Position numbers and translations under genes: made by a program. DNA of 64,000 nucleotides from an uncultured Gammaproteobacteria bacterium (GTDB lineage: Bacteria; Patescibacteriota; Microgenomatia; UBA8517), in contig CAZTVZ010000004.1 of NCBI GenBank assembly GCA_964617045.1, positions 15,799 through 79,798 on the forward strand, given 5' to 3'. This document shows, in pieces, positions 3,746 to 61,449 of the stretch. Under the pieces are notes generated by a model that saw nothing but the letters and a program-made list of their open reading frames with translations, made no database searches and had not been told where the DNA came from. Within the stretch, counting starts at the first letter, position 1; each line of letters begins with the position of its first letter.

Positions 3746-4672
3746 TTATACACAGCTTCCGTAATTTTCTTTTTTAGCACCACAATGTGGACACGTGGTT
3801 ATCCCAAAACCGGAGGGTATTTTCCCACCGCATTTTGGACAGGAAAAGAATCTTTCCTGACTCCAATTTCCCTTAAAGAAATTGTCAAAAGGAGAATTAT
3901 CTATAGCACTTACCATTCCCAAGGCTGCGACGTTGGATATTCCGCAGCTTCCGCTTGGTGATATGTAATAACCATATTTTTTTGCTTCTTCTTCAATTAG
4001 TGCTCCGAGCATAAGTTGATAATGAAAATTATTCATTATTAGACTGAGTTCTCTGGAGTATTTTTCGACAATATCCGAAGCAATCTTTGTTGTTACGACT
4101 TTTTCTTTCAGGTCATCCTTCTTCCTTATTCTGTTCCATACTTCAGATTTTCCGAAGATTTTCTCTAAATGGTTTATCCAATCTCCACCTTTTCCCTCGA
4201 ACGGAAATATATTACTTCTTACCTCTTCAACATTATTTTGTTTGGTGTTACCCATTAAACTAGCTATTTGCAGACATTCTTCTGCCGATTCTTTGCCGCA
4301 TATTGCCCTGCAAGCAATTTGTTTTCCTTTCTTTTCGAATATTACAAATCTGGATTCAGAATAGTCTTTTGATGGGGGAGAAATCCATATTGCCTGTCCA
4401 TTTTTTGTTTCGTTTGCCCATTTTTCAAGTTTCTCCGAAGCTTCGTATTCTTTTTTATCCTGTTCGGTACGGACTTCTATCACATCAAGTATCCTTCCGA
4501 ATTCATTTGAAACAAGTTTTCCTTCCCGATCAACGAATAATTCGTAATAAGTTATTTTTTCTTCCAGGGGAGCCTTTTTGTTTTCGATAAGGTATGAAGC
4601 AAAATCACTCTCAATTTGAGATTGATCTTTATCTTTCCAATTGCCGATGTTTAAAGCTAATCTTTCTGCCAT
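3746..4672 (-). CDS. Hypothetical protein with a C-terminal zinc ribbon.
   Basis: The 308-aa ORF ends CPKCGG...CPHCGAKK (4-Cys ribbon). I recognise no other domain. Confidence 0.45.
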   Translation of the reverse strand: MAERLALNIGNWKDKDQSQIESDFASYLIENKKAPLEEKITYYELFVDREGKLVSNEFGRILDVIEVRTEQDKKEYEASEKLEKWANETKNGQAIWISPPSKDYSESRFVIFEKKGKQIACRAICGKESAEECLQIASLMGNTKQNNVEEVRSNIFPFEGKGGDWINHLEKIFGKSEVWNRIRKKDDLKEKVVTTKIASDIVEKYSRELSLIMNNFHYQLMLGALIEEEAKKYGYYISPSGSCGISNVAALGMVSAIDNSPFDNFFKGNWSQERFFSCPKCGGKIPSGFGITTCPHCGAKKENYGSCV

Positions 4673-4836
4673 TTCTGCTCGGAATACTCGATCGTTAGTT
4701 TTCCGGCTTTAACGGTTGCGGCACAGCTTCGGATTTACACCGAATTCCTTGAAACACAATCGGTATGTTCATTATGCATTTAACATAATCGAAGTCAATA
4801 GGTTAATATTAATTAGATTAAAAGGGGGTGAGAATT

Positions 4837-20770: not shown

Positions 20771-21349
20771 TTGGCAAACAAAGAAGAAACAACAAAAAAA
20801 TCAGGAAAAAATAAGACAATAATGATCATCGTAATAGCCGTTGTCGTGCTCGTAGGATTGGGAATTGTAGGGAGAATTGCTTCCCAATATATGGCTCGAA
20901 AAGCTGCTGGCGGATTTCTCTCGGCATTAACTGGTGGAAAAGCAAACGTTAATTTGACCGGTGATGAAGTAACCGTTAAAGACAAAGACGGAAATGAAAT
21001 AACGATTGGTGGTGAAGGAGCAAAACTTCCTAAAGAATATCCAAGCTCAATTCCTGAACCCAAGAACGGCAAAGTAATAACAAGTTGGTCAAGTACAACC
21101 GATGGAAGAGTCGGAATTTCCGTTATCTGGGAAGTGTCCGATTCAGTAGACAGTATTTACGAAAGCTATAAACAAGCGATCGAGAATGCCGGATTTAAAA
21201 TTACTGCAACTTTCTCTGCGGATGACACAATGACCTTTACCTTTGAAAAAGAAAGTGAAGGAGAAATGGAGGAAGGAGGTACGATCGGAGTAGGAAAGGG
21301 TGACGGAGGAAAGACAAACGTTACCTTGATGTACGGTGCAAATAAATGA
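20771..21349 (+). CDS. Hypothetical membrane-anchored extracytoplasmic protein.
   Basis: TTG start 7 nt after the SD GGGAGGTGA. Lys-rich N-terminus, one TM helix, then a Gly/Asp-rich soluble domain. Confidence 0.5.
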   Translation: MANKEETTKKSGKNKTIMIIVIAVVVLVGLGIVGRIASQYMARKAAGGFLSALTGGKANVNLTGDEVTVKDKDGNEITIGGEGAKLPKEYPSSIPEPKNGKVITSWSSTTDGRVGISVIWEVSDSVDSIYESYKQAIENAGFKITATFSADDTMTFTFEKESEGEMEEGGTIGVGKGDGGKTNVTLMYGANK

Positions 21350-21849
21350 AGCGGGACGAGTATCAAAACGAGGCCTGGTTTGAGTTCTTGGAGGAAGACC
21401 TTCAAAGCTTGTTGATAACGAGCAGTATTTTGATGGAAAAAGCTTCTTCGTGGGATGAAAAACTAATTGACTATTCTTTCGTCGTTTTTCCGGCTGCAAA
21501 AGCATACGAAGGTTATTTGAAAAAAATATTTTACGAAAGAGGGTTTATTTCGAAGGATGATTATTATGGAAAAAGATTCAGGATTGGTAAAGCCCTTAAT
21601 CCAAGTCTTGATCCAAGATTCAAAAACGAAAGTGTATATAGAAAGATAGCCATTTCTCCGGAGAAGAAAGAACTTGCCGACAAACTTTGGGAAACATGGA
21701 AACTTTGTAGAAACATATTGTTTCATTGGTTTCCAGACGAAAAAAATACGGTGACCTTAAATGAAGCAGGGGAGAGAGTTGCCAGAATAATCGATACGAT
21801 GAGCAACTGCTTTGCAGGGTGTAATATAAAGTATGACCAAAGCAAATAA
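21346..21849 (+). CDS. Hypothetical protein, possible HEPN-like domain (RNxxxH).
   Basis: No signal peptide. Near the C-terminus, RNILFH matches the HEPN Rx4-6H / HepT RNxxxH motif. ATGA overlap with the upstream gene. Confidence 0.4.
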   Translation: MKRDEYQNEAWFEFLEEDLQSLLITSSILMEKASSWDEKLIDYSFVVFPAAKAYEGYLKKIFYERGFISKDDYYGKRFRIGKALNPSLDPRFKNESVYRKIAISPEKKELADKLWETWKLCRNILFHWFPDEKNTVTLNEAGERVARIIDTMSNCFAGCNIKYDQSK

Positions 21850-23397: not shown

Positions 23398-23841
23398 ATG
23401 AAATGTCCGTTTTGTGCACACCTAAATACGAAGGTTTTAGAATCCAGAATTGTGGAGGAAGGCGAAGCTTTGCGCAGGCGAAGAGAGTGTATCAAATGTG
23501 GCAGAAGGTTTACAACTTTTGAGAAAGTTAGAGACACGGTTTTGTGGGTAATCAAGAAATCGGGGAAAAGAGATCCTTTCGACAGAGAAAAGGTAAAAAG
23601 AGGAATTTTAAGAGCGATAGAAAAAAGACCGGTTTCTCTGGAATTGGTTGAAGATATTGTAAACGACATAGAGAGAGAATTATTGAGAAACGGAAAAGAA
23701 GAGATACCGAGCAAATTAATAGGAAATGCAGTCTTGAAAAGATTAAAAAGAGTGGATAAAGTAGCTTGGTTGCGATTTGCAAGTGTCTATCTTGAATTTG
23801 AGGATGTTGGAGATTTTGAGAAAGCGATAGATAAAGTATGA
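23398..23841 (+). CDS. nrdR: Transcriptional repressor NrdR.
   Basis: N-terminal zinc ribbon MKCPFC...C(I)KCG followed by an ATP-cone. Length 147 aa. It sits directly upstream of the RNR genes. Confidence 0.9.
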   Translation: MKCPFCAHLNTKVLESRIVEEGEALRRRRECIKCGRRFTTFEKVRDTVLWVIKKSGKRDPFDREKVKRGILRAIEKRPVSLELVEDIVNDIERELLRNGKEEIPSKLIGNAVLKRLKRVDKVAWLRFASVYLEFEDVGDFEKAIDKV

Positions 23842-26423
23842 CAAAGAAAAACAAAATAACATTAGATTCTTTTTCATTTCCTTCATATGAGGAAATTAAA
23901 AAAGATATTATCAATAAGATCGGAGATAAACCTGCAATGCCCACCGATCTTACCGAAGGCAATTGGACCGAACAGTCTCTGAAAGTTTTAAACGAGAGAT
24001 ATCTTCTGAGAGATAAAGAAGGAAACATAATAGAAACTCCTTCGCAAATGTGTTGGAGAGTCGCATGGGAAATTGCTTCAACTGGGGTAAGGTGGGGACA
24101 AACAAAAGAGGAAGTAATAAATACTGCACGAGAATACTACCGGCTTCTTTCCTCTCACGAGTTTTTGCCAAATTCTCCAACATTAATGAATGCCGGTGCC
24201 AATAATCATATGCAACTTTCCGGATGCTATGTGTTACCAGTAGAAGATTCTTTGGTGGGAATATTTGATGCAATTAAATACCAGGCACTTATTCATCAAA
24301 CTGGTGGTGGAACAGGTTTTTCTTTCTCAAGATTAAGGCCAAAAGGATCAGTCGTTGGTTCTAGTAAAGGGACTGCATCAGGCCCAGTTTCTTTTATGAG
24401 AATATTCGATTCTGCCACAAATGAAATAAAACAAGGAGGTAAAAGAAGAGGTGCCAATATGGGTATTTTGAGGGTCGACCACCCCGATGTTCTTGAATTT
24501 ATCCATTGCAAAGAAGATGGGGGAATCACCAACTTCAATATTTCCGTGGGGATAACGGATGCGTTTATGAAGGCATATGATCGTGATGAAGAATACGATC
24601 TTGTTAATCCCAAAACAAAAGAAAAGACAGGAAGTTTGTCTGCAAGAAAAGTATTCCAAGAAATTGCGGAAAGTGCTTGGAAATCGGGTGATCCTGGTTT
24701 GGTTTTCATCGACAGGTTAAATAGGGGAACGGCAAATCCGGTTCCAGTAATGGGCCCGGTTGAATCGACCAATCCTTGTGGCGAGCAACCTCTTTATCCT
24801 TGGGATTCCTGTAATTTGGGATCGATATTCTTAACCTATTTTGTAAAAGAAAAAGACGGGAAGAAATCTGTTAACTGGGAACGATTATCCGAAGTAACAA
24901 GACTTGCGGTTAGATTCTTGGATGGAGTTATCGAAGTAAATCCATACACCCTTCCACAAATCAGACAGACAACGTTCGGGATAAGAAGAATCGGATTGGG
25001 TGTTGGAGGTTGGTCCGACATGCTAATAGAGTTGGGTATTCCGTATGATTCCGAAGAGGCTTTGGAATTGGCTGCAAAAGTAATGAAATTTGTTAATAAG
25101 GAAGCGATAGCTGAATCTGAAGAATTGGCAAAAACAAGAGGGCCTTTTCCGATGTATCCGGTATCAATATATAAACATTTGAAACCAAGAAGAAATGCAA
25201 CTCTTACAACTATTGCTCCAACGGGAACAATTTCAATTATTGCAGGAGCCTCTTCGGGAATTGAGCCGATGTTCGCTATCGCATACCAACATATTGTTAA
25301 AGACAAACACTTGGATAGAAGAATGTCTTTCGTTAATCCTAAGTTTGAAGAGTTGGCAAAGAAAAGAGAAATATGGACAGATGAAATAAGAAAAATGGTT
25401 GAGGAAAAAGGAGTAGTGAGAGCAATTGAAGAAATCCCCCAAGATATCAGAAAATTATTTGGCACTGCTCATGAAATATCTCCATCATGGCATGTAAAAA
25501 TGCAGGCAGCATTCCAAAAATATACGGACAATGCAGTCAGTAAAACAATTAATTTGGATCATAATGCAACAATTAATGATGTTAAAAAAGCATATCTTTT
25601 GGCATGGGACACCGGATGCAAGGGGATAACCGTATTCAGGGACGGTTGTAAAGATATGCAGGTATTAAATTTGGGTTTGGGTGAAGTAAAGGATAAAACA
25701 AATATCGATAATACCGGGGTTCCACTCCGTGATAGGCCGGCTAAAGTATTCGGTGCTACTTATAAAATGAACACTCCCGTTGGAAGCGCATTTATCACTA
25801 TTAATCAGGACGAAAACGAAGATCCGTTGGAAGTATTTATCAATGTAGGTAAAGCAGGAAGTGATGTTGCGGCAATGGCGGAAGCTTTGGGAAGGACAAT
25901 ATCAACTGCACTAAGATTCCGAGGGTCTTTGGGGCCGAAAGAAAAAGCCAAAGAAATTGCCGGTCAATTATCCGGAATAGGTGGAAGAAGATCTGTGGGG
26001 TTTGGACCCAACAAAGTAAGATCTTTACCGGATGCTATCAGCTCGGCATTATCAATGCACTACGGTTTTAAAATTAACGGAAACGGCCACGCTGAAGCGC
26101 CACTAAAAGCGGCCGGTGCTGTTATGGAGGCGGTGGGTTCTGCCCAGGTAGAACAAACCCCAACGGGTTATCCCGGCCCCACAATGGCTTCGACCGCCTC
26201 TAATGGCGCTTCAAACGGCAACGGACATTATACGAATGGACATTCGGCTCAAACTCTCGAAAGCATTCAAGAAATTGTTTTACCAACGGAAGATGAAGTA
26301 AAAGATTATTCTTTCGAAACAATGGAAAAACCAGGTGATATCTGCCCCGCATGTGGTGCTTCCGCTCTTGTTTATGAGGAGGGATGTTCCAAATGTCACG
26401 CCTGTGGCCATTCGGAGTGCTAA
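23838..26423 (+). CDS. nrdJ: Ribonucleotide reductase, class II (adenosylcobalamin-dependent), with a C-terminal zinc ribbon.
   Basis: RNR catalytic fold motifs LPNSPTLMNAG, SGCYV, and TNPCGEQPLYPWDSCNLGS (thiyl-radical Cys loop). No ATP cone. A low-complexity Ser/Asn/Gly linker precedes the CPACG...CSKCHACG tail. Confidence 0.9.
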   Translation: MTKKNKITLDSFSFPSYEEIKKDIINKIGDKPAMPTDLTEGNWTEQSLKVLNERYLLRDKEGNIIETPSQMCWRVAWEIASTGVRWGQTKEEVINTAREYYRLLSSHEFLPNSPTLMNAGANNHMQLSGCYVLPVEDSLVGIFDAIKYQALIHQTGGGTGFSFSRLRPKGSVVGSSKGTASGPVSFMRIFDSATNEIKQGGKRRGANMGILRVDHPDVLEFIHCKEDGGITNFNISVGITDAFMKAYDRDEEYDLVNPKTKEKTGSLSARKVFQEIAESAWKSGDPGLVFIDRLNRGTANPVPVMGPVESTNPCGEQPLYPWDSCNLGSIFLTYFVKEKDGKKSVNWERLSEVTRLAVRFLDGVIEVNPYTLPQIRQTTFGIRRIGLGVGGWSDMLIELGIPYDSEEALELAAKVMKFVNKEAIAESEELAKTRGPFPMYPVSIYKHLKPRRNATLTTIAPTGTISIIAGASSGIEPMFAIAYQHIVKDKHLDRRMSFVNPKFEELAKKREIWTDEIRKMVEEKGVVRAIEEIPQDIRKLFGTAHEISPSWHVKMQAAFQKYTDNAVSKTINLDHNATINDVKKAYLLAWDTGCKGITVFRDGCKDMQVLNLGLGEVKDKTNIDNTGVPLRDRPAKVFGATYKMNTPVGSAFITINQDENEDPLEVFINVGKAGSDVAAMAEALGRTISTALRFRGSLGPKEKAKEIAGQLSGIGGRRSVGFGPNKVRSLPDAISSALSMHYGFKINGNGHAEAPLKAAGAVMEAVGSAQVEQTPTGYPGPTMASTASNGASNGNGHYTNGHSAQTLESIQEIVLPTEDEVKDYSFETMEKPGDICPACGASALVYEEGCSKCHACGHSEC

Positions 26424-26426
26424 TAG

Positions 26427-28586
26427 ATGGAAGAAAAAATACTCTTAAATAAAAAAGTAGTAAAAGCCGGAGGTGCGGAAGAAAATTTTAACCTCGAAAA
26501 AATAAAAAACAGTATTTGGTATGCTGCACAAAACGTTGGAGGAAAAGATAAGAAACTCTCAGAAGGATTATCCAAAGAAGTTCAAAAGTATTTGTTGGAA
26601 CATTTAAACGGAGAAGAAAAAATTAAATCGAGTTTGATTGGAGAGGCTGTCGAAAAAGTATTAATCGAAAAAGGACATGCAAAAACAGCCAAAGCATATA
26701 TCTTATTCAGGGAAAACAAAAAACACTTGAGACAGGACAAAGAAACGCTTGGGGTTAACGACGATATAGGTCTTTCGTATAACACTTTGTATATTCTGAA
26801 ATCCAGATATTTAAAAAAGGATGAAAAAGGAGATGTTATTGAATCACCCCGTGAATTAATCGAGAGAGTTGCCAATTGTTTGTCTTCTGTGGAGAAAAAC
26901 GATCAGGAAAAGAAAAAATGGTTCGAAAGATTTATGAATATCATGATTTCTTTTGAGTTTTTGCCGGGAACCCGAACATTGGCTAACGCGGGACTTCGTA
27001 ATCCTCAACTGGCAAACTGTTTTGTTTTCGACCTGGAAGATGATATAGACGGAATTTTTGAAACACTTCACAAATCAACTTTGATAAAAAAACACGGAGG
27101 GGGATGCGGATATAACTTTACCAGGATTAGACCCGAAAGCGATCTTGTTAGTGGAATTCCAGGTTTGGCAGCGGGACCTGTGAGAATGATAGAAATGTTC
27201 GATTTAATGACATCACTTTTTAAACAACAGGGGAAATATGAAAGTGGGAATATGGCAATTTTAAACGCAAATCACCCTGATATTTTTAATTTTATTTCGG
27301 CCAAACAAAATGAAAATTATTTGACAAAAACCAATCTGTCCGTAGGAATAACCGACGAATTTATGAATGCTGCCGTAAAAGATAAAACATGGCAACTAAA
27401 AAGTCCGAGAACCGGGGAAATTGTCAGCGAAGTTGAGGCAAATTCAATACTTGAGTTGATGGCACAGATGGCTTGGGCAACAGGTGATCCGGGTATAATC
27501 AACCTTTCTGCAATCAATAGGGGAACCAAACTGGCAAACCCGTTATACAAAAAGAAGGGTCCAATAATGGCTACCAATGTTTGTGGTGAAATACCTTTAT
27601 ACCCTTACGAATCGTGCAATCTTGGATATCTAAACCTTACGAAATTTGTTATTGGAAAAAAGTTTGATTACAAAAGATTTAAAGAAGTAATGAAGATTGC
27701 TGTTAGGTTAATGGACAACGTAATTGACGCTTCTTGGTTCCCGGTAAGAGAAGTGGAAAAGGCGGTTCGTGATCACAGAAGACTGGGTATTGGGGTTGTT
27801 GGTTGGGCGGAAACCCTTATTATGCTTGGCATACCTTACAACAGTAGCGAAGCTTACAAATTCGCGGAAGAATTAACAAAAACGATGTATCAGACTGCTT
27901 TCAATACATCTTGCGAGCTAGCAAAAGAAAAAGGACCTTTTCCTCTTGTTCAAGATTCAATATGGGCAAATGCAAAAAGGAAACCAAGGAACGTTGCTTT
28001 AATAACTTTTCCTCCATCAAGCGGAAACGCGGTGCTTTGTGAGACCTCATATGGTATTGAACCCTTATTCGCAATTGCCTACGAACAAAACGTTTTGGGA
28101 GGAGAAAGGTTTACCAATATTAATCCTCTTTTTGTCCGAGAGTTGAGAGAAAGAGGTTTGTATTCAGAGAAGATAATCGAGAAAGTAATAAAAAATCACG
28201 GATCTGTTCAGGGAATTAAAGAAATCCCACAGGATATGCAAAAAATATACAAAGTTGCACACGATATTAACTGGAGAGATCACATCAAGATGCAAGCTGC
28301 ATTTCAAAAATGGACAGATAACGCAATTACAAAAACAATAAATATGCCTTCATCAACAACGCCGGGAGATATTAAAGAAGCTTACATTTTGGCATGGAAG
28401 CTGGGATGCAAAGGCTTAACCGTTTACAGGGATAAGACTAAACAAAACCAAGTATTTGAATTTGGAAAAAGTTCGTCTTCTGTTGGAAAGATCAGTAAAA
28501 CTTGTCCTACTTGTTCCACCAAGCTTTTTAAAGACGGTAAATGTCTGAAGTGCAAGAACTGTGGTTTTTCCACTTGTGAGTTATAA
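26427..28586 (+). CDS. nrdJ: Ribonucleotide reductase, class II paralog, with an N-terminal ATP-cone and a C-terminal zinc ribbon.
   Basis: N-terminal ATP-cone (VVKAGGAEENFNLEKIKNSI), catalytic motifs FLPGTRTLANAG, ANCFV, ATNVCGEIPLYPYESCNLG, and a C-terminal CPTCS...CLKCKNCG. Confidence 0.85.
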   Translation: MEEKILLNKKVVKAGGAEENFNLEKIKNSIWYAAQNVGGKDKKLSEGLSKEVQKYLLEHLNGEEKIKSSLIGEAVEKVLIEKGHAKTAKAYILFRENKKHLRQDKETLGVNDDIGLSYNTLYILKSRYLKKDEKGDVIESPRELIERVANCLSSVEKNDQEKKKWFERFMNIMISFEFLPGTRTLANAGLRNPQLANCFVFDLEDDIDGIFETLHKSTLIKKHGGGCGYNFTRIRPESDLVSGIPGLAAGPVRMIEMFDLMTSLFKQQGKYESGNMAILNANHPDIFNFISAKQNENYLTKTNLSVGITDEFMNAAVKDKTWQLKSPRTGEIVSEVEANSILELMAQMAWATGDPGIINLSAINRGTKLANPLYKKKGPIMATNVCGEIPLYPYESCNLGYLNLTKFVIGKKFDYKRFKEVMKIAVRLMDNVIDASWFPVREVEKAVRDHRRLGIGVVGWAETLIMLGIPYNSSEAYKFAEELTKTMYQTAFNTSCELAKEKGPFPLVQDSIWANAKRKPRNVALITFPPSSGNAVLCETSYGIEPLFAIAYEQNVLGGERFTNINPLFVRELRERGLYSEKIIEKVIKNHGSVQGIKEIPQDMQKIYKVAHDINWRDHIKMQAAFQKWTDNAITKTINMPSSTTPGDIKEAYILAWKLGCKGLTVYRDKTKQNQVFEFGKSSSSVGKISKTCPTCSTKLFKDGKCLKCKNCGFSTCEL

Positions 28587-28594
28587 TCTTCAAA

Positions 28595-29131
28595 ATGTCT
28601 ATCTACACAAAAAAGGGTGACGGAGGAGAAACAGGCTTATATTCCAGAACCAAAGACAAGGTTGTCCGTATTTTCAAAGATTCACCAATAATCGAGGCGA
28701 TAGGATCTGTCGATGAGGCAAATTCATTTTTGGGTATATGTGCGGACTGTCCCAACAACAATCTTCACAAGAAGATCGTGATTATCCAAAGGGCTTTGTT
28801 TACCGTTGGAGGAATTCTTGCAGGTGCAAAATTATCTATTTCAAATAAACAAATCGAGTATTTGGAAAACGAAATAGACTCCATGGATAAAGAACTTCAA
28901 AAATTATCAGGGTTTATTCTACCTGGAGGTGGATTTACGGGAAGCCATCTTTTTATGGCAAGAACGTTAATAAGGAAAGCTGAACGAAAATTGGTTCGTT
29001 TATCTAAAGAAGAAAAGGTTCCTGCAAGTGTTCTCGTATATGTAAACAGGCTCTCGGATTATGTTTATACCCTCGCAAGATACAGCAATTTGAAAGAAGG
29101 AATTAAAGAGGAGTCTTGGAAGCGTAAATAA
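28595..29131 (+). CDS. pduO: ATP:cob(I)alamin adenosyltransferase, PduO-type.
   Basis: N-terminal TKKGDGGETGL (the PduO T(R/K)xGDxGxT motif) and EANSxxG. Length 178 aa. Confidence 0.8.
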   Translation: MSIYTKKGDGGETGLYSRTKDKVVRIFKDSPIIEAIGSVDEANSFLGICADCPNNNLHKKIVIIQRALFTVGGILAGAKLSISNKQIEYLENEIDSMDKELQKLSGFILPGGGFTGSHLFMARTLIRKAERKLVRLSKEEKVPASVLVYVNRLSDYVYTLARYSNLKEGIKEESWKRK

Positions 29132-29148: not shown

Positions 29149-29490
29149 ATGACCATGACTCCGGAACGGGGGAGTTTTCCTGTACAGGAAAGACCGGAAG
29201 AGTTTCCCGAAATTCCGTTAGAAATTGAAAATAAGACTGCCTTAACTCCTACACCTGTCCAATTTAAAGCACAGGTTAAAGACGATAGAGGTAAACCGCT
29301 AATTTCAACCTCCGAAAGGGAAGAAAATAAAATTGTAATTCCCAAACCTAAGGAGCAATTGGAAATTGGAGCAAAGGGTTCAGCCGGCGATGCTTTAACC
29401 TGGTTCAGTCAATTTTGGTTGAGGGCAATTAAAAAAGCGGTATTGGTTGGGAAACAAATATTTTTAAGGAGGGAAAATGCCAATAATTGA
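29149..29490 (+). CDS. Hypothetical protein.
   Basis: 113-aa ORF whose end overlaps the start of the downstream ATPase. No recognisable domain. Confidence 0.35.
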   Translation: MTMTPERGSFPVQERPEEFPEIPLEIENKTALTPTPVQFKAQVKDDRGKPLISTSEREENKIVIPKPKEQLEIGAKGSAGDALTWFSQFWLRAIKKAVLVGKQIFLRRENANN

Positions 29491-31804
29491 TATTAACGCA
29501 ATCGTTTTAGCACTTCTTTTGTTGGGACTTCTTGTTTTGGGATTGTTTGTAATTGGATATGTAGCGTTCATCTTTATTAGGCACAGGAATCGTGAGGAGA
29601 AATCTTTGGAATCAGTACTCATGCAAATAGCAGTTCCAAGAGGAAATGAAACAAAAATTGATGCAATGGAACAAATGTTCTCGTCTCTTTCTTCCTTGAA
29701 AAAAGGAGGCTTTTGGCAAAAGTTTTCATTCCAACCTACGATATCTTTCGAAATTGTGGCCAGAAAGGAAGATATTCGTTTCTATATCTGGACACCGGTA
29801 AAATATAAAGATCTTTTAGAAAAACAAATACACGGAGCTTTTCCTGATGCGGAAGTTTTGGAGGTATCCGAATACAACATATTTAACGAATCGGGCAAAG
29901 TTGCTTATAAATCGCTGCAACTTTCCAAAGAAAATTACTACCCGATCAAGACTTTTAAGGATTTGGCCACCGATCCTTTGGCTGCGATTACCTCTTCGAT
30001 GGCAAAGATGGGGGACGGTGAGGCAGCAGCAGTCCAAATAGTTGTTTCTCCCGCCGATATCCCTTGGCAAAAAGAAGGGGGTAGTTATATCTCCGATACA
30101 AAAAAACAGGAATCTAATCCGGAAAAAGCCAGTTTTTCTACTTCGGGAAAAACTCTTGAATCAATTGAGAGCAAGACTTCCAAACCCGGTTTTGAAGTAT
30201 CGATAAGAATCGTTGCGGTTGCTCCTTCCGAAGAAATTGCAAAAATGCACCTGACCAACATTGAAGCAGGTTTTGAACAATTTAGTTCGGATACCAACAA
30301 ATTCCGATCAAGAAAAATTCGCAACAAAGGAGCTTTTATTGAAGATTTTCTTTATCGGTATCAACCAATGTTTCATTTATTTGGGAATCGCTCTTCGATC
30401 TTAAATTCTGAGGAATTGGCAACACTATTCCATTTTCCGAACAAACAAATTACAACACCCCACATTTATTGGATATATTCAAAAACCGCTCCTGCACCAT
30501 CCGATATTCCAAATGAAGGAATGTTTTTGGGAATTAGTGCCTACAGAGGGGTAAAAAGATCGGTATACATTTCCGACGAAGACAGAAGAAGACACACATA
30601 CATAATCGGAAAAACAGGAACAGGAAAGACAGAACTTTTAAAAGATATGATTTTGCAGGACATTAAAGCGGGTCGTGGAATATGTTTTATGGATCCTCAT
30701 GGAGACGCGATCGAAGATATTTTAAAACAGATTCCTCCGGAGAGAGCGGAAGACGTGATTTATTTTAATCCCGGTGACACCGAAAGGCCGATGGGATTAA
30801 ATCTTCTTGAAGCAAGAACGGAAGATGAAAAACATTTTGTTGCAACATCCGTTATTAATATGATGTACAAGCTTTTCGATCCTTATAAGACAGGTATCGT
30901 GGGTCCTCGATTCGAGCATGCCGTAAGAAACGCAATGCTAACCGTAATGGCAGAACCGGGTAATACTTTCGTTGAGGTCATGAGAGCATTAACCGATGCC
31001 AATTTTGTTCAAGAACTTCTTCCCAAAGTAACCGACCCGATTATCAGAAGGTATTGGACAGATCAAATAGCTCAAACCGCCGATTTTCATAAGTCGGAAG
31101 TTTTGGACTACATTGTTTCCAAATTTGGAAGATTTGTTACCAATAAAATGATTAGAAACATAATTGGACAATCTCAATCTTCATTCTCTTTCAGAAATAT
31201 TATGGATGAAGGGAAAATTCTTTTAATTAATTTGGCTAAAGGTGAAATAGGGGAGGAAAACTCTAATTTCTTGGGACTTGTTTTGGTCCCCAGAATTTTA
31301 ATGGCTGCTATGAGTAGACAAGATGTTCCTGAAGACCAGAGGCGTGACTTCTTCCTTTATGTTGACGAGTTCCAAAATTTTGCCACCCCCGATTTTGCGC
31401 AGATTCTTTCCGAAGCAAGAAAATACAAATTAAACCTTTGTGTTGCCAACCAGTTTATCGGACAGGTTGAGGAAGAGGTGAAAAATGCGGTATTTGGAAA
31501 TGTGGGAACAATTATTGCCTTTAGGGTTGGTGTTACGGACGCTTCTTACCTTGCTCACGAATTTACTCCAACTTTCGGTGAAGATGACCTTTTGAACATA
31601 GAAAGATACCACGCTTATATTAAAACGATAGTTCACAATGAACCCGTGCCCCCGTTCTCAATGGATTTGACCAAAGATATTGCTGCCCAAAAAGCAGCAG
31701 AAAATCATAGAGTAGCAGAAATCGTAAAAGAAATGAGCAGGCTAAAATTTGGAAGAGACGAGCGTCTAGTTGAAGCAGAAATGACCAGAAGGGCTAAGCT
31801 TTAG
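29477..31804 (+). CDS. T4SS-type P-loop ATPase (FtsK/HerA superfamily, VirB4/VirD4-TraD-like) with an N-terminal TM helix and a family-specific N-domain.
   Basis: N-terminal TM helix. Walker A HTYIIGKTGTGKTELL then DPHGD (the T4CP DPxGD-like motif), Walker B FFLYVDEFQNF, and the C-terminal motifs ARKYKLNLCVANQFIGQ. It is a paralog of the ATPase at 61450..63648. Confidence 0.7.
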   Translation: MPIIDINAIVLALLLLGLLVLGLFVIGYVAFIFIRHRNREEKSLESVLMQIAVPRGNETKIDAMEQMFSSLSSLKKGGFWQKFSFQPTISFEIVARKEDIRFYIWTPVKYKDLLEKQIHGAFPDAEVLEVSEYNIFNESGKVAYKSLQLSKENYYPIKTFKDLATDPLAAITSSMAKMGDGEAAAVQIVVSPADIPWQKEGGSYISDTKKQESNPEKASFSTSGKTLESIESKTSKPGFEVSIRIVAVAPSEEIAKMHLTNIEAGFEQFSSDTNKFRSRKIRNKGAFIEDFLYRYQPMFHLFGNRSSILNSEELATLFHFPNKQITTPHIYWIYSKTAPAPSDIPNEGMFLGISAYRGVKRSVYISDEDRRRHTYIIGKTGTGKTELLKDMILQDIKAGRGICFMDPHGDAIEDILKQIPPERAEDVIYFNPGDTERPMGLNLLEARTEDEKHFVATSVINMMYKLFDPYKTGIVGPRFEHAVRNAMLTVMAEPGNTFVEVMRALTDANFVQELLPKVTDPIIRRYWTDQIAQTADFHKSEVLDYIVSKFGRFVTNKMIRNIIGQSQSSFSFRNIMDEGKILLINLAKGEIGEENSNFLGLVLVPRILMAAMSRQDVPEDQRRDFFLYVDEFQNFATPDFAQILSEARKYKLNLCVANQFIGQVEEEVKNAVFGNVGTIIAFRVGVTDASYLAHEFTPTFGEDDLLNIERYHAYIKTIVHNEPVPPFSMDLTKDIAAQKAAENHRVAEIVKEMSRLKFGRDERLVEAEMTRRAKL

Positions 31805-31839
31805 AAAATTGGTTTGTGGTGATATAATTTAGCCTCAAC

Positions 31840-31910
31840 GGGTCCTTCGTTCAATGGCAGGACACGACTCTTATAAAGTCGACACAGGGGTTCGATTCCC
31901 TTAGGACCCA
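31840..31910 (+). tRNA. tRNA-Ile with anticodon UAU.
   Basis: Manual fold: a 7-bp acceptor stem GGGTCCT/AGGACCC, a D-arm GTTC/GGAC, an anticodon stem CGACT/AGTCG with loop CTTATAA (U33, anticodon TAT, A37), a T-arm AGGGG-TTCGATT-CCCTT, and discriminator A. CCA is not encoded. Confidence 0.7.
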
Positions 31911-31923
31911 CACTTTTAGGTTT

Positions 31924-32790
31924 TCAGAGTTCAATAAGAAGTTGTTTTTTGCCGGGTTCTTTAACCTGTGCAAGCTCCAAATATCTTTCGGTTGTGGAAA
32001 GTCTTTTGTGTCCGGAAACCTGAGAAAGGAGAACGATGTCCACTCCGGCTTTAATGTTTTCAACAATGAAAGTAGTCCTCAAATCATTTACGGAATAGTT
32101 TGGCATTTCTGCTCTTTGCATGTATCTGTCGATTGCTGCCCTAATATTTCTTACAGCCAATGGTTTACCGTTTTTTGATACAAAAAGGTATTCGGAGGCA
32201 ATTTTATTGGGCCTTGTTGCTGAATAACTGGAAATTGCTTCTTTTGCGGCTCTGTTTAAGGGAATGGTTCTTTCAGGCTGCGTTGCGTAAGCCTCTATCT
32301 TCATGTGGTCTCCTTTTAGGTTTGATAGTTTAAGGCTTGCTACTTCGGAAATTCTAATTCCTGTTTGGAGAATTATTTCAACAATTGCAGCAATTCTAAT
32401 GTCGCTCCTGACAACGTCGCGCAAAGCTCTGTATTCGAGAGGAGAGAGAAACTTGGGAAGTGAACTTTCGATCTTGGGATGTGCAACGGAAAGTGATGGA
32501 TCCGAAGCTAAATGGTTTTCGGATATTAGCCATCTGAAGAATGTTTTTACAGCATTTAATTTTCTGGAAACTGTTTTTGGAGTATATTTTTCGGCCAAAA
32601 GTTGATCTCTAAAAGATTCAAGATCGGACGCAATTATTTGCTCCGGGAGGCCTTTGTTTTTACGCGTCAAATATTGAACAAGCTGTTCAAGATCGGCTCT
32701 GTAGGCAAGTATTGTTGCCGGAGAACGACCTTTCTCTTTAAGGCTCTCGATAAACTTCGGAAGCAGGTTCTTAAGTGTTTCTTGTGTCAT
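31924..32790 (-). CDS. xerC: Tyrosine site-specific recombinase, XerC/XerD family.
   Basis: The 288-aa length, the N-terminal SAM-like domain (ILAYRADLEQLVQYL), and the C-terminal catalytic R...HxxR...Y (GHKRLSTTERYLEL) are Xer-like. Confidence 0.8.
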   Translation of the reverse strand: MTQETLKNLLPKFIESLKEKGRSPATILAYRADLEQLVQYLTRKNKGLPEQIIASDLESFRDQLLAEKYTPKTVSRKLNAVKTFFRWLISENHLASDPSLSVAHPKIESSLPKFLSPLEYRALRDVVRSDIRIAAIVEIILQTGIRISEVASLKLSNLKGDHMKIEAYATQPERTIPLNRAAKEAISSYSATRPNKIASEYLFVSKNGKPLAVRNIRAAIDRYMQRAEMPNYSVNDLRTTFIVENIKAGVDIVLLSQVSGHKRLSTTERYLELAQVKEPGKKQLLIEL

Positions 32791-32850: not shown

Positions 32851-33240
32851 ATGAAGGAGGCTAAAAAACACAAATTATCCGATGTGTTCGGCAAATTCAC
32901 AAAATACATCGTTATTTTGTTTGCCGTTTTATTCTTAATTTCTTTAATCAGGAGCCTGGTTAAGATTACCGGTTCAAAAAAACAAATCGATGAAGCAAGG
33001 GGAAGGGTTGAAAAATTACAATCGGAAAACGAGTCTCTGAAAAACAAACTGGCTCTTTCACAGAGTGAAGCGTTTATTGAACAGCAGTTGAGGGACAAAT
33101 TGGGATTGGCAAAAGAGGGGGAAATGGTGGTGGTTCTGCCTGAACCGAGCATATTAAAACAATATTCACCTAAAATTGTATACGAAGAAGAGATTCTCCC
33201 CGATCCTACCTGGAAAATGTGGTTTAGGTTCTTTTATTGA
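32851..33240 (+). CDS. ftsB: Septum formation initiator FtsB/DivIC-family protein.
   Basis: An N-terminal TM helix followed by a coiled coil (RVEKLQSENESLKNKL), and LRDKLGLAKEGEMVVVLPEP, the conserved FtsB C-terminal motif. Confidence 0.75.
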   Translation: MKEAKKHKLSDVFGKFTKYIVILFAVLFLISLIRSLVKITGSKKQIDEARGRVEKLQSENESLKNKLALSQSEAFIEQQLRDKLGLAKEGEMVVVLPEPSILKQYSPKIVYEEEILPDPTWKMWFRFFY

Positions 33241-33365
33241 GTTTCTGAGCTCAAACTGGTAACATATACCTCTGGAGATACTACATGCGGGGTAGTGTAC
33301 GGCTGCACGCAAGGCTCATAATCTTGCAGACTAGGTCCAACTCCTAGCCCCGCAACACGATACCT

Positions 33366-33437
33366 GCCAACGTAGCTCAGCGGCAGAGCGGTCGTTTCAT
33401 AAGCGACATGTCACAGGTTCGAATCCTGTCGTTGGCA
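33366..33437 (+). tRNA. tRNA-Met (anticodon CAU; elongator-type by stem features).
   Basis: Manual fold: acceptor stem GCCAACG/CGTTGGC, D-arm GCTC/GAGC, anticodon stem GTCGT/GCGAC with loop TTCATAA, and T-loop TTCGAAT. It lacks the initiator features (no C1xA72, no 3 GC pairs at the base of the anticodon stem). CCA is not encoded. Confidence 0.75.
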
Positions 33438-33485
33438 CACCTTTTACGCTTCAATACTAGCCTCAAAAGTGATACAATCCAGGGT

Positions 33486-34487
33486 ATGTCAGCTAAACGA
33501 GTATTATCAGGAATTCGTGCTTCGGGCCGCCTACATTTGGGAAACTATTTAGGTGCGGTCAAAGGAATGCTGGCTTTACAAGACGATCCTGCCTACGAAA
33601 CGTTCTATATGGTTGCCGATTTGCACACTTTAACAACCCCATATGAGAAAGAAAAACTGGAAGAGCAGGTTAAAGAAGTAATTCTGGATTATTTGGCTGC
33701 AGGTTTGGATCCTGAAAAATCGGTTATTTTTATTCAATCTCAAACCGGTGAACACAGAAAACTTGCTTATCTTCTGGCAACAGAAGTTTCGGTGGCAAGA
33801 ATGTTACACCTACCAACTTACAAAGATAAGCTAAAAGAAAATCCTGACGATGCGAGTCTTTCCCTTTTGTATTATCCGGTTCTAATGGCGGCGGACATTC
33901 TGGCTTACAAAGCAAATCTTGTTCCGGTTGGAGTAGACCAAGAGCCACATTTGGAAATATCCAGGCAAATTGCCAGGAAAATGAATTCCAAATACGGTAC
34001 AAATTTTCCAGAACCAATAAGATTCGAGACAGAAGGCGGATATGTCCCGTCTCTAACGGGAGAGGGAAAAATGAGCAAAAGTATCGAAGGAAGTGCGATT
34101 TATTTAACTGACAGTTTGGATGAGATTAAAAGTAAAATTGCCAAGATTCCGACAGATTCGGGAAGTGGAGAGACCGTTCCTAAAGAAGGCGGAGTTGCCT
34201 CTCTTTTTACAATTACGGAACTGGTAATGGGAAAAAAGGAAAGAGAAAATTTGGAACAGAAATATCTGTCTGAAGGAATAAGATATGGTGAGCACAAAGA
34301 AAAACTGTCACAAGCGATTTTTGAAATGCTAAAACCGATTCAAGAAAAAAGAGAGTATTTCGAGAATAATCCCGAAAAGGTAAGGGAAATAATTAAAGCA
34401 GGGGATAATAAGGCCACCGAGGTGTCCCACGGTATTGTTGAAGAGGTATCTTCAAAAATGGGTCTTTGTTACGACTTTTTAAAATAA
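33486..34487 (+). CDS. trpS: Tryptophanyl-tRNA synthetase.
   Basis: SGIRASGRLHLGNYLGA (HIGH-type motif) and KMSKS (GEGKMSKS). The ORF track starts upstream and overlaps the tRNA. The ATG at 33486 gives a protein of the canonical size. Confidence 0.9.
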   Translation: MSAKRVLSGIRASGRLHLGNYLGAVKGMLALQDDPAYETFYMVADLHTLTTPYEKEKLEEQVKEVILDYLAAGLDPEKSVIFIQSQTGEHRKLAYLLATEVSVARMLHLPTYKDKLKENPDDASLSLLYYPVLMAADILAYKANLVPVGVDQEPHLEISRQIARKMNSKYGTNFPEPIRFETEGGYVPSLTGEGKMSKSIEGSAIYLTDSLDEIKSKIAKIPTDSGSGETVPKEGGVASLFTITELVMGKKERENLEQKYLSEGIRYGEHKEKLSQAIFEMLKPIQEKREYFENNPEKVREIIKAGDNKATEVSHGIVEEVSSKMGLCYDFLK

Positions 34488-34489
34488 AA

Positions 34490-34822
34490 ATGGACATTAT
34501 TACATATAACGATTTTGCAAAGATTGAATTCAGAGCTGGGAAAATATTGAGTGCAGAGGATGTTGAAGCTTCGGAAAAACTGATCAAATTTGAAGTAGAT
34601 TTTGGAGAATTGGGTACGAAAGTCGTTTTTTCCGGAATCAAAAAATGGTACAAACCGGAAGAATTGACAGGAAAAACATACATTTTTGTAGTAAACTTGG
34701 AACCCAAGAAAATCATGGGGGAAGAATCTCAGGGGATGATTGTTGCTGCTGAAGAAGAAGACGGAAACTGTGTATTAGTTGCCCCCGAAAAAGAAATTGC
34801 CCCAGGGACAAAAGTATATTAA
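34490..34822 (+). CDS. tRNA-binding-domain protein (CsaA / Trbp111 / MetRS C-terminal-like).
   Basis: FAKIEFRAGKILSAE...KLIKFEVDFGE is the OB-fold tRNA-binding (EMAP-like) signature. Length about 110 aa. Confidence 0.7.
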   Translation: MDIITYNDFAKIEFRAGKILSAEDVEASEKLIKFEVDFGELGTKVVFSGIKKWYKPEELTGKTYIFVVNLEPKKIMGEESQGMIVAAEEEDGNCVLVAPEKEIAPGTKVY

Positions 34823-36648
34823 TGAAGAAAAAGGTAAAGAAGATACAAATTAAGATTACTCCATTAAAAGTAATCGCTGTATTGGCGATTCTCTTTTTTG
34901 TTATTCCGCTTGTGACCTCGGCTTTTTCATACTTTACGGATTCAACCAGACTTGAGCTAACTCAGGCAATGAGCGATATTAAGGAAGACAAAATAGAGAA
35001 AATAGTTGTTGAAAACGACAGTTTACTTCTTACCTACAAAGACGGATCGGTTAAAGTATCAAACAAGGAATCGAATGATTCGTTTTTGGATGTTCTCGAG
35101 AAATATCAAATCGATCCCAAAAAGGTTAACTACACAATTTCTGACCAGACGGTTGCCAAAGCAGTGGGAAGTGTTCTATCAATAGTGCTTCCGATTATAC
35201 TAATGGCTGCTTTTTTCTTCTGGCTTTTGAAATCACAAAGCAGAGGTGCCCAGGATATTTTCTCCTTCGGAAGAAGTCGGGCAAAACTTTTTGCAAAAGG
35301 AAAACAATCGGTTACTTTTAAAGATGTCGCCGGTGTCGATGATGCAAAAAAGGAGCTCGAAGAAATTGTTGATTTTCTGAAAAATCCTTTCAAATACAGA
35401 AAAATTGGAGCAAGAACACCAAAGGGAGTTCTTCTTTTCGGACCAGCCGGTGTTGGAAAAACGTTACTTGCACGGGCAGTCGCCGGAGAAGCAGATGTTG
35501 CGTTTTTCTCGATGGCCGGAAGTGAATTTATGGAAATGCTGGTGGGGGTTGGAGCATCCCGCGTCAGAGATTTATTCGCACAAGCAAAAACTTCTGCACC
35601 TTCAATTATTTTCATTGACGAAATCGATGCAATTGGAAGACAGCGAGGCAGGGGAATGATTGGAGGTCACGATGAAAGAGAACAAACCCTTAATCAAATC
35701 CTTGTAGAAATGGACGGGTTTACCCAAAACGATAATGTTATTGTTGTTGCTGCAACTAACAGAGGGGATTTATTGGATCCTGCACTTTTGAGACCGGGAC
35801 GATTTGACAGAAGAGTAACTTTGGACATGCCGGATAAAGAAGGAAGACAGGCAATACTAAAAATTCACGCAAGAGGAAAGAAGTTTGTTAAAGGAATAAA
35901 GTGGGAGAAAGTTGCCGACAGAACGGTAGGATTTTCTGGTGCGGATTTGGAAAACATGCTCAATGAAGCAGCAATCTTGGCGGCCAGAGAAAACAAAGAT
36001 TCAATTGAAATGAAAGATATTGAAGAAGCAGCTACAAAAGTGAAACTTGGCCCTGCCAAGAAAAAGCTTCAATCGGAAGAAGACAGGAAAATAACTGCAT
36101 ATCATGAAGCGGGACATGCAATAGTAACTCACAAATTACACGATACCGATCCCGTTGAAAGAATTTCAATCGTTGCTAGGGGTATGAGTTTGGGTCACAC
36201 ATTGATCCCCCCGGCAGCCGACAGGTCACACGAAACGAAATCTAGACTTCTTGATAACATTGCTGCAATGCTTGGTGGTCGTGCAGCTGAACAAATTGTG
36301 TTTAAAGAAATGACTTCAGGCGCTTCAAACGATATTCAAAAAGCAACCCAGCTTGCCAGAGCAATGGTCGTGGATTTCGGAATGAGTTCCTTGGGGCCAA
36401 TAAATTTCGGACCACAATATGATATGGGAGAATTCGGTCAAACCGAATGGTACGAGCCTCCGCAAGTATCTCAAGCCATGCAGGAAAAAGTTGATACTGA
36501 AGTTAAAAAGATAATCGATGAGGCATATCAAAAGGCAGCAAAATTGGTTGCCGGAAACAGAAAGACAATGGATAAAATTGTTGCCGAGCTTTTGAAAAAA
36601 GAAACACTGGATCGTGACGATTTTGAAAAAATTGTCGGGAAAAAGTAA
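34822..36648 (+). CDS. ftsH: ATP-dependent zinc metalloprotease FtsH.
   Basis: An N-terminal TM helix, a periplasmic domain, a second TM helix, an AAA domain (GPAGVGKTLLARAVAGEA; SRH region) and the HEAGHAIV zinc site. Confidence 0.95.
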   Translation: MKKKVKKIQIKITPLKVIAVLAILFFVIPLVTSAFSYFTDSTRLELTQAMSDIKEDKIEKIVVENDSLLLTYKDGSVKVSNKESNDSFLDVLEKYQIDPKKVNYTISDQTVAKAVGSVLSIVLPIILMAAFFFWLLKSQSRGAQDIFSFGRSRAKLFAKGKQSVTFKDVAGVDDAKKELEEIVDFLKNPFKYRKIGARTPKGVLLFGPAGVGKTLLARAVAGEADVAFFSMAGSEFMEMLVGVGASRVRDLFAQAKTSAPSIIFIDEIDAIGRQRGRGMIGGHDEREQTLNQILVEMDGFTQNDNVIVVAATNRGDLLDPALLRPGRFDRRVTLDMPDKEGRQAILKIHARGKKFVKGIKWEKVADRTVGFSGADLENMLNEAAILAARENKDSIEMKDIEEAATKVKLGPAKKKLQSEEDRKITAYHEAGHAIVTHKLHDTDPVERISIVARGMSLGHTLIPPAADRSHETKSRLLDNIAAMLGGRAAEQIVFKEMTSGASNDIQKATQLARAMVVDFGMSSLGPINFGPQYDMGEFGQTEWYEPPQVSQAMQEKVDTEVKKIIDEAYQKAAKLVAGNRKTMDKIVAELLKKETLDRDDFEKIVGKK

Positions 36649-42045: not shown

Positions 42046-43107
42046 ATGTATTCGCCCAAGTTTCTTATTTCTCATAAAATACTGCGTAATATTGGACAAA
42101 TTGAAGCTGCCAAAGAGGTAATCGAAAACGCTCCTTTGGTACCCTCCTTTGAAAAACAATTTCAATCTGATGCAATTGTCAGAACTGTTTATCACGGCAC
42201 CCATATTGAAGGAAACGATCTTACTCTTATTCAAACAAAAAAGGTTCTTGAGGGAGAAGAAGTGTATGGAAGAGCGAGAGATATTCAGGAAGTAATTAAC
42301 TATAGAAATGTTGTTTCGCTCCTTGACCAGCTTGCCGCAAAAAGGGGAGGATACGACCAGGAAATGCTTAAGGATATTCATCGATCCACGGTAACAAAAT
42401 TGATACCCGATGAAAAAGTCGGAGTATTCAGGGTAAGCCAGGTTGTTATAAAAGAAGCCGGAACCGGAGAGATTATATTTCAACCGCCTCCTTTCGTGGA
42501 AGTTCCGTATTTGATTACCGATTTTTTTGACTGGTTAAACAGTTCCGAATCAACGGATATTCATCCAATTTTAAGAGCCGGAATAACGCATTACATTCTT
42601 GTTGCAATTCATCCTTTTGTCGAAGGTAACGGAAGGAGCTCTCGTGCATTTACCAATTTGGTCTTAATGAAAGAAGGGTATGATATTAAAAAGTTTTTTT
42701 CTTTAGAAGAACATTTTGACAATGACCCTGCCGCGTACTATGCGGCTTTTTCCTGCGTAGATAAACAGTCGACCAATATTGCTGCCAGAGATTTAACTCC
42801 TTGGTTGGAATATTTTACCGAAACCGTTGCCGTTGAACTCAATAAAATAAAAGAAAAGGTTAGAAAATTGTCCATTGATACCAAATTGAAGGTAAAAATC
42901 GGACAACAAATATCGCTTTCGGAAAGACAAATGAGATTAATAGAATATATTTCCGATCAAGGTTCCGCATTAATGATGGAATTAAAAAGAGTTTTACCAA
43001 TGGTTTCCGAAGATACGATACTTAGGGACTTAAAAGACATGCTCGATAAGGGTATTATTAAAAAGGAGGGAAGTACCAAGGCCTCCAGATATATCATTGC
43101 AAAATGA
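42046..43107 (+). CDS. Fic-family protein (AMPylator-type) with a C-terminal winged-helix domain.
   Basis: Fic core motif HPFVEGNGRSSRAFTN (HxFx(D/E)GNGRxxR). N-terminal YHGTHIEGNDLT resembles the intramolecular inhibitory helix motif (S/T)xxxE(G/N). Confidence 0.85.
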   Translation: MYSPKFLISHKILRNIGQIEAAKEVIENAPLVPSFEKQFQSDAIVRTVYHGTHIEGNDLTLIQTKKVLEGEEVYGRARDIQEVINYRNVVSLLDQLAAKRGGYDQEMLKDIHRSTVTKLIPDEKVGVFRVSQVVIKEAGTGEIIFQPPPFVEVPYLITDFFDWLNSSESTDIHPILRAGITHYILVAIHPFVEGNGRSSRAFTNLVLMKEGYDIKKFFSLEEHFDNDPAAYYAAFSCVDKQSTNIAARDLTPWLEYFTETVAVELNKIKEKVRKLSIDTKLKVKIGQQISLSERQMRLIEYISDQGSALMMELKRVLPMVSEDTILRDLKDMLDKGIIKKEGSTKASRYIIAK

Positions 43108-55050: not shown

Positions 55051-55185
55051 CTTTCTCAGGGGTGCGAGGTTAACTTCCCTTCAGGGTAACAACTTCATAA
55101 TTTGAACCTTAACAATCGAGATGTGACTGGGAATGTATAAAGACGTGCATAGACAATCGTCAAATGTCTATCACCGTCACTTTTT

Positions 55186-56644
<1,459 letters not shown>

Positions 56645-59592: not shown

Positions 59593-59883
59593 ATTACCTC
59601 CTTTAGGGTTTTAGATTAGAAGCTTTTTCCAGACTACATACAGCCTTGCGAGAAATGTTATTTATTTCACCTCCTTTTCTTTTCTCTCGTTGTTAAAGGG
59701 CTAATTTATTAATTATCTACAAAGCAAATGTTTTGTAGAAGGGAATTGTCAATTGAAATTAACACAACGGGAGAATATTTAAATCAGGGAACACTGATAA
59801 AGCTGATTCCAAATGGAATCATTCAGTGTTCCCATAATCACTTATAGTGGGTCAGCAGGTTTACCCACTATCGTCCGAGAAAA

Positions 59884-61446: not shown

Positions 61447-61449
61447 TCC

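Follow-up and report, generated by a model that had tools for sequence, protein, structure and literature searches.

A syntenic tRNA-Ile(UAU) gene as the probable AUA reader of a Woesebacteria-like CPR bacterium and its relatives

In the canonical bacterial system AUA is read without AUG by means of the tilS/tRNA-Ile2(CAU) pair, the PP-loop enzyme TilS converting C34 of the tRNA to lysidine. The cytosolic tRNA-Ile(UAU) of eukaryotes, which carries pseudouridine at positions 34 and 36 and is charged by a type-2 IleRS, also reads AUA, and its discrimination against AUG depends on the pseudouridine-34 made by Pus1. UAU tRNAs that read AUA and are charged by a type-2 IleRS are known from archaea as well, in Nanoarchaeum and Korarchaeum. 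Among cultured bacterial species TilS is present in 98.18% and has been termed evolutionarily stable (PMC6063277). Nine species in three clades lack tilS and carry a tRNA-Ile(TAT) (Taniguchi et al. 2013, PMC3575796), and tRNADB-CE holds a TAT tRNA for 19 species (PMC4013482). In the known tilS-less bacteria the IleRS either is of type 2 or is of type 1 and has Arg or Lys instead of the Trp that stacks on the wobble base (Trp905 in the E. coli enzyme, in the Zn-binding domain) (PMC3575796). The decoding of AUA by a UAU tRNA without TilS is therefore, as such, already known, with Mycoplasma mobile, Bifidobacterium and Neorickettsia as examples.

Here we describe a tRNA-Ile(UAU) gene from a Woesebacteria-like member of the Microgenomates, within the CPR; the 64-kb stretch of its DNA that was analysed is referred to below as the window. 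M. mobile likewise has a small genome and an encoded TAT tRNA-Ile, which in that bacterium reads AUA as Ile without any tilS (PMC3575796); in the present case the loss of tilS is presumed. The M. mobile trait is recent and belongs to one clade (PMC3575796), whereas the gene described here occurs across many CPR candidate phyla. In M. mobile U34 has been shown to be unmodified, the position of the wobble-stacking Trp is taken by Arg865 in IleRS1 and AUG is rejected on the ribosome, while in Bifidobacterium and Neorickettsia, which also combine the absence of tilS with a tRNA-Ile(TAT), a eukaryote-type IleRS2 is the presumed enabling factor (PMC3575796). Both tilS and tRNA-Ile(TAT) occur, sporadically, in Lactobacillus casei, L. 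plantarum, Cyanothece PCC 7424 and Ferrimonas balearica (PMC3575796); in contrast to these bacteria, no tilS was seen here in the sequence examined, and the tRNA is syntenic and lineage-wide. The lysidine system of Southlakia has the same gene neighbourhood (divIC, CAU tRNAs, ftsH), in which the window instead has a gene-encoded U34. The search of the window and the related loci gave neither of the canonical lysidine components, a PF01171 (TilS) protein and an Ile-type CAU tRNA. What is new is the scale, a syntenic gene spread lineage-wide across Microgenomates and Dojkabacteria, where AUA outnumbers AUG. The UAU tRNA is certainly visible in routine MAG annotations, and a literature search found no published link between CPR/Patescibacteria and lysidine or TilS loss.

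The tRNA-Ile(UAU) gene and its neighbourhood

The window has a G+C content of ∼39% and a gene content typical of a CPR chromosome, which comprises genes for lower glycolysis and the non-oxidative pentose-phosphate pathway, for two class II ribonucleotide reductases with NrdR and a PduO adenosyltransferase, and for PBP1-type enzymes and DUF5654, DUF5667 and DUF8128 proteins, as well as an isolated 16S rRNA gene. The closest named homologues of its FtsH are from Candidatus Woesebacteria (73-80% identity), and exact matches to its proteins came from metagenome assemblies and a single NCBI contig alone. Six tRNAs were called in the window by ARAGORN. One of them, called with anticodon tat and isotype Ile, is placed in the order TrwB/DUF8128-like ATPase, tRNA-Ile(UAU), xer (reverse strand), divIC, tRNA(CAU), tRNA(CAU), trpS, tRNA_bind, ftsH and 5'-3' exonuclease (Table 1).

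Table 1. Features around the tRNA-Ile(UAU) gene, in window coordinates.
Feature	Position	Strand	Evidence and remarks
DUF8128/TrwB-like type IV coupling-protein homologue	29477..31804	+	Pfam TrwB_AAD_bind, TraG-D_C, DUF8128; upstream synteny anchor
Promoter-like TTTAGA-17 nt-TATAAT with TG extended -10	31800..31828	+	Consensus scan; ends 11 nt upstream of the tRNA
tRNA-Ile(UAU)	31840..31911	+	ARAGORN; loop CUUAUAA, A37, A73
Xer-type tyrosine recombinase	31924..32790	-	Pfam Phage_integrase and SAM-like domain; best NCBIfam XerC/XerD
DivIC/FtsB-like septum formation initiator	32851..33240	+	Pfam DivIC
Initiator tRNA(CAU), divergent	33286..33356	+	ARAGORN; Rfam 47.1 bits
Elongator tRNA-Met(CAU)	33366..33438	+	ARAGORN; Rfam 70.3 bits
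Tryptophanyl-tRNA synthetase (trpS)	33486..34487	+	Pfam tRNA-synt_1b
tRNA_bind (Trbp111/CsaA-like) protein	34466..34822	+	Pfam tRNA_bind; between trpS and ftsH
FtsH	34822..36648	+	Pfam AAA and Peptidase_M41

The tRNA reads GGGUCCU-UC-GUUC-AAUGGCA-GGAC-A-CGACU-CUUAUAA-AGUCG-ACAC-AGGGG-UUCGAUU-CCCUU-AGGACCC-A. Its acceptor stem (GGGUCCU/AGGACCC) is followed by the discriminator A73, the D arm is GUUC-AAUGGCA-GGAC, the anticodon arm CGACU-CUUAUAA-AGUCG and the T arm AGGGG-UUCGAUU-CCCUU, with a variable loop of 4 nt; the anticodon loop is C32-U33-U34-A35-U36-A37-A38. Against the Rfam tRNA model, whose gathering score is 29, positions 31840..31910 scored 60.3 bits (E = 1.4e-10) over the full model length. 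The cloverleaf is also the unconstrained minimum-free-energy fold (-24.9 kcal/mol, z = -2.6), a stability equalled by one of 200 shuffled versions. The initial annotation, which had folded the gene by hand into a cloverleaf with loop CUUAUAA and anticodon UAU and had proposed ARAGORN as a check, is borne out by that program, which returned isotype Ile and anticodon tat, and by the Rfam score and the predicted fold. The promoter-like site upstream of the gene is a pattern match only: the 2-kb region contains four such sites, where chance alone would give 3.3. When the tRNA bodies were compared with reference tRNAs of E. coli, the best matches were to Ile1 (16), Lys (11), Val (8), Ile2 (7) and Met (6); as body similarity to E. 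coli is uninformative, the Ile isotype rests on the anticodon together with the meaning of the codon.

Conservation among related bacteria

Related loci were collected with the TrwB-like protein as probe, which gave 80 loci from 80 species genomes, with flanks of up to 6 kb. In the nearest species of the GTDB genome set this protein is 69-75% identical to that of the window. In 49 of the 80 related species a tRNA-Ile(TAT) gene lies no more than 6 kb from the TrwB-like orthologue; the median distance is 166 nt, and at 34 loci the two are within 600 nt of each other. The usual gene order in the relatives is TrwB-like, tRNA(TAT), xer (reverse strand), divIC, two tRNA(CAT), trpS and ftsH, with the Xer-type recombinase in the same position in most of the related loci. 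The carriers were deposited under the names Woese-, Gottesman-, Levy-, Curtiss-, Davies-, Collier- and Dojkabacteria. At many of the loci without a tRNA-Ile(TAT) the downstream sequence is too short; at 15 loci, including Roizman-, Doudna- and Berkelbacteria and WWE3, there is no such tRNA near the anchor gene despite at least 2.5 kb of downstream sequence. A UAU tRNA-Ile had at first been described as a trait of scattered lineages, but the gene proves instead to be syntenic and kept across Microgenomates and Dojkabacteria.

The titles of the records are unreliable as taxonomy. Among the CPR TPA_asm MAG records (loci L008-L087) one often meets 'uncultured Gammaproteobacteria', evidently a placeholder, as well as 'Pseudomonadales', 'Bathyarchaeia' and 'Saccharibacteria'. 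For locus L075, 'Saccharibacteria' by title, the nearest named relatives are Dojkabacteria, and for this reason the label was dropped for L075-L077.

All 50 tRNA-Ile(TAT) sequences available for comparison are distinct from one another, and 99.5% of the 1050 cells of their cloverleaf stems are nevertheless standard pairs. Changes on both sides of the pair, that is compensatory changes, were found in 19 of the 21 stem pairs. The covariation score was 0.788, compared with 0.194 for shuffles, none of 500 of which reached it, and with at most 0.141 for slid partners. Positions 32-37 (CUUAUA) are invariant in all 50 sequences, as are U8, A14, G18, G19, G53, C56, C61 and A73, and 39 of the 50 have C4:G69. 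Both A73 and C4:G69 are reportedly identity elements of E. coli IleRS, a finding ascribed to Nureki et al. in 1994. The conservation, the covariation and the invariant loop indicate that tRNA-Ile(UAU) is old, functional and vertically inherited, with its anticodon under selection.

The conserved gene order also bears on whether the tRNA might belong to a mobile element, either as the integration site or as cargo of a prophage or an integrative element with a conjugation-type coupling protein. The immediate neighbours would suit such an element, since only 13 nt separate the tRNA from the end of a tyrosine recombinase gene downstream, and 35 nt from the end of the TrwB/TraG-like ATPase gene upstream. 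Nevertheless, the recombinase is closest to XerC/XerD, the order of coupling protein, tRNA and xer is kept across candidate phylum-level lineages, and housekeeping genes (RNR, divIC, trpS, ftsH) stand on both sides. The 3' half of the tRNA is not repeated in the window, even with three mismatches allowed, and base composition is flat across the region. TrwB-like proteins, moreover, are general in CPR (PMC12102498). We therefore regard a mobile element as extremely improbable. The pairing of tRNA and recombinase was also considered as a genomic island, a candidate rejected in view of the Xer-like recombinase, the conserved order and the lack of a 3'-end repeat in the window.

AUA use, CAU tRNAs and TilS

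Codons were counted in 55 non-overlapping ORFs covering 56.5 kb of the window. The use of AUA, which the initial annotation had wished to see checked, amounts to 23.3 per 1000 codons, and 29% of the codons for Ile are AUA; it is present in all 55 genes and is commoner than AUG (20.9 per 1000). By the usage scale that Muraski et al. 2025 (PMC12514573) apply, this is 'high'. A-ending codons are strongly favoured in the split boxes in general (AAA 1236, AAG 346; GAA 1098, GAG 287; AGA 408, AGG 164). The meaning of AUA was assessed by tblastn of nine window proteins against their orthologues in the 80 loci. Residues opposite AUA were I in 49%, V in 18%, L in 17% and M in 3%, a profile indistinguishable from those of ATT and ATC; ATG differs, aligning with M at 39%. 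This profile and the heavy use of the codon indicate that AUA means Ile and needs an efficient reader.

These data weigh against the suggestion that the UAU tRNA is not an isoleucine tRNA in practice, being either a pseudogene or charged with another amino acid, with AUA reassigned. Comparison with E. coli reference tRNAs does not mark its body out as Ile, and the D arm of the window copy (GUUC/GGAC) is atypical for tRNA-Ile. Against this stand the strong purifying selection evident from the compensatory changes and the invariant anticodon loop, the I/V/L profile that AUA shares with AUU and AUC with so little Met, and the conservation of A73 and, in most sequences, of C4:G69. We consider such a departure from isoleucine very unlikely.

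Taken together, the window and the 80 related loci have 43 CAU tRNAs, with at most two per locus. These fall into two classes, initiator and elongator Met, and no third, Ile2-like CAU class was found among them. In the window itself an elongator-Met-like tRNA had already been recognised at 33366..33437, and this assignment holds; it had also been taken for the only CAU tRNA present, which it is not, since ARAGORN and Rfam both find a second one, the divergent initiator (Table 1).

The initiator class has the acceptor stem (C/U)GCGGGG...CCCCGCA-A, that of E. coli tRNA-fMet, and all 20 of its members are closest to E. coli fMet; apart from the window it is represented, for example, in loci L010, L012, L013, L014, L023, L029, L030, L033, L038, L052, L057, L059, L063 and L066. 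The window initiator (acceptor stem UGCGGGG/CCCCGCA-A) differs from E. coli tRNA-fMet in this stem at position 1 only, having U1:A72 where E. coli has the C1xA72 mismatch. In place of three G:C pairs its anticodon stem has A29:U41/G30:C40/G31:U39 (AU/GC/GU). The D arm, GUGU-ACGGCU-GCAC, includes U11:A24, and in the T loop, UCCAACU, position 55 is a C. Among the related initiators the AU/GC/GU stem was found in 15 of 20 and U1:A72 in 11 of 20. A similar AU/GC/GU initiator stem is known in some mycoplasmas. The elongator class starts GCCAGGG-UAGCUCAG and has the loop UUCAUAA; E. coli elongator Met is the nearest reference for 14 of its 23 members, and the window elongator has ACGUAGCUCAG and GUCACAGGUUCGAAUCC in common with metT. 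With no Ile2-like class among them, the neighbourhood has the tRNAs that an organism reading AUA by UAU should possess, one UAU and two CAU.

No sign of TilS was found in the window, in which the PP-loop SGGxDS motif is absent from all frames and no protein matches PF01171/TilS in Pfam or NCBIfam. Beyond each end of the window only short contigs with unrelated genes were recovered. A motif scan of the related loci gave no TilS-like ORF, the PP-loop proteins encountered being MnmA in L068 and an unrelated ORF in L029.

A complete genome is available for the Saccharibacterium Southlakia epibionticum and serves as a positive control. Its tilS (SEML1_0730, 885 bp) adjoins FtsH (0729) and was scored essential in two of three analyses, and the tRNA-Met genes 0733 and 0739 and divIC (0740) lie less than 6 kb from it (PMC10633639). 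The annotation of this genome has three tRNA-Met and one tRNA-Ile (PMC10633639), as would be expected if it uses lysidine and its Ile2 tRNA has been labelled Met. No tilS is found upstream of ftsH in the window or in the seven related loci that reach ftsH. The stretch upstream of ftsH contains trpS in the window and in five of these seven loci, and in L059 and L072 ftsH comes directly after the CAU tRNAs. A tRNA_bind gene in the stretch upstream of ftsH was confirmed in the window only; there it occupies the position that tilS has in Southlakia, possibly by coincidence.

A wider survey points in the same direction. In Supplementary Data 1 of Meheust et al. 2019 the TilS family (K04075, PF01171) is listed as 'depleted', with 123 CPR and 866 non-CPR bacterial genomes out of totals of 2321 and 1198, respectively, while EF-Ts, for comparison, is found in 1983 CPR and 1046 non-CPR genomes (PMC6744442). 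The TilS family is thus present in about 5% of CPR genomes by this table, which covers widespread families only, has no lineage breakdown and could be escaped by a divergent CPR-specific TilS family (PMC6744442). The depletion is not discussed in the text of that paper (PMC6744442). The window and related loci without TilS, the empty slot upstream of ftsH, the presence of two CAU classes only and the depletion across CPR make a loss of TilS likely in this lineage, and we infer the same for the present genome.

A parallel system, with tilS and tRNA-Ile2(CAU) elsewhere in the genome and the UAU tRNA as extra AUA capacity, would account for the same gene. The 64 kb analysed leave some 90% of the genome in which tilS and a third CAU tRNA could lie, TilS is present in some CPR (Southlakia and the 123 genomes of Meheust et al. 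2019), and AUA is frequent enough to reward added decoding capacity; bacteria with both systems are documented (PMC3575796). What speaks against it is that TilS is missing from the window, the related loci and the slot upstream of ftsH, that only two CAU classes occur in the 80 loci, and that the sole survey found places TilS in so small a fraction of CPR genomes. In addition, the TAT-bearing loci titled 'Saccharibacteria' are closest to Dojkabacteria among named relatives, so that no confirmed TilS-bearing lineage was seen with a TAT tRNA. On balance we judge a parallel system unlikely, and we favour the replacement of tilS and tRNA-Ile2(CAU) by the UAU tRNA.

The one pointer to the type of IleRS comes from Southlakia, whose enzyme is annotated without a Zn-finger domain and has 6LDK among its best structural matches (PMC10633639). 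No IleRS was found in the window or the related loci, where a scan for the KMSKS motif gave TrpRS and unrelated ORFs only. We take 6LDK to be a eukaryote-type IleRS.

Decoding scheme and further features of the window

We consider it probable that the gene described here is a functional, vertically inherited tRNA-Ile(UAU) that serves as the dedicated AUA reader in a Woesebacteria-like CPR bacterium. In the proposed scheme U34 would form a Watson-Crick pair with the third-position A of AUA, for which lysidine would not be needed. AUU and AUC would be read by a tRNA-Ile(GAU) encoded elsewhere in the genome, and the two neighbouring CAU tRNAs are the initiator and the elongator tRNA-Met. Microgenomates and Dojkabacteria would have replaced the tilS/tRNA-Ile2(CAU) pair or would never have had it, and both tilS and a third CAU tRNA are predicted to be absent genome-wide. 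Charging would be carried out by an IleRS that accepts U34, presumably one of type 2, or else one of type 1 in which a basic residue has replaced the wobble-stacking Trp. A37 is a candidate for t6A modification; an A37 that follows U36 fits t6A in ANN-reading tRNAs. Misreading of AUG might be avoided through modification of U34, through a property of the ribosome or through competition with tRNA-Met. With regard to the interpretation originally placed on the gene, the reality of the tRNA, its UAU anticodon and the meaning of AUA as Ile all stand, and the replacement of TilS and tRNA-Ile2(CAU) that it had raised is the best-supported reading; the view of the feature as a scattered oddity does not stand.

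Beyond this one genome, we lean towards the view that TilS and lysidine are missing throughout the Microgenomates and Dojkabacteria, and that these lineages read AUA by an encoded UAU although AUA is commoner than AUG. If this is true, TilS would be neither a near-universal nor an 'evolutionarily stable' bacterial trait, and the UAU solution would either go back to an ancestor of part of the CPR or stem from one ancient replacement. These lineages would also need a way to stop U34 from misreading AUG, be it a modification, a property of the decoding centre or a balance between IleRS and MetRS; the same lineages carry an initiator tRNA without three G:C pairs. Microgenomates and Dojkabacteria make up a sizeable share of bacterial diversity and, together with the depletion of TilS in CPR, such a finding would raise the UAU solution from an anecdote to a major bacterial decoding strategy. 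It would bear on the proposed ancestral status of UAU decoding of AUA, and would offer many natural variants for the study of AUG avoidance by U34. On the practical side it would affect the annotation of CPR genomes (calls of Ile2 and Met tRNAs), completeness markers that contain tilS, and TilS as a drug target. Its interest would rise if the absence of TilS holds genome-wide and if the IleRS or U34 solution differs from those known.

Several other features of the window were noted. An AdoCbl-II riboswitch was detected at 4689..4762 on the reverse strand, scoring 37.3 bits with a gathering score of 36.5, and the ORF downstream of it (308 aa, 3746..4672, reverse strand) has no Pfam match. Two adjacent paralogues of B12-type (class II) ribonucleotide reductase occupy 23398..29131 on the forward strand and are accompanied by NrdR and a PduO-type cobalamin adenosyltransferase. 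The 16S rRNA gene (55180..56642, forward strand; 1463 nt, 1371 bits) is isolated, with no tRNA-Ile/Ala or 23S gene after it in the window, and a contig that runs past the right end of the window has a LAGLIDADG endonuclease ORF (L099, 1773..2228), probably within a 23S intron. A second DUF8128/TraG-like paralogue (61450..63648) lies in a reverse-strand region, 56950..63648, where it adjoins two large ORFs of 880 aa and 411 aa that match no family; in longer contigs this paralogue is followed by a run of ORFs of 60-100 aa, and the region is a candidate module for type IV secretion or mobility. The window also encodes RnlA-toxin DBD-like (21346..21849), Fic/DOC (42046..43107) and SET-domain (3359..3739) proteins, all on the forward strand.
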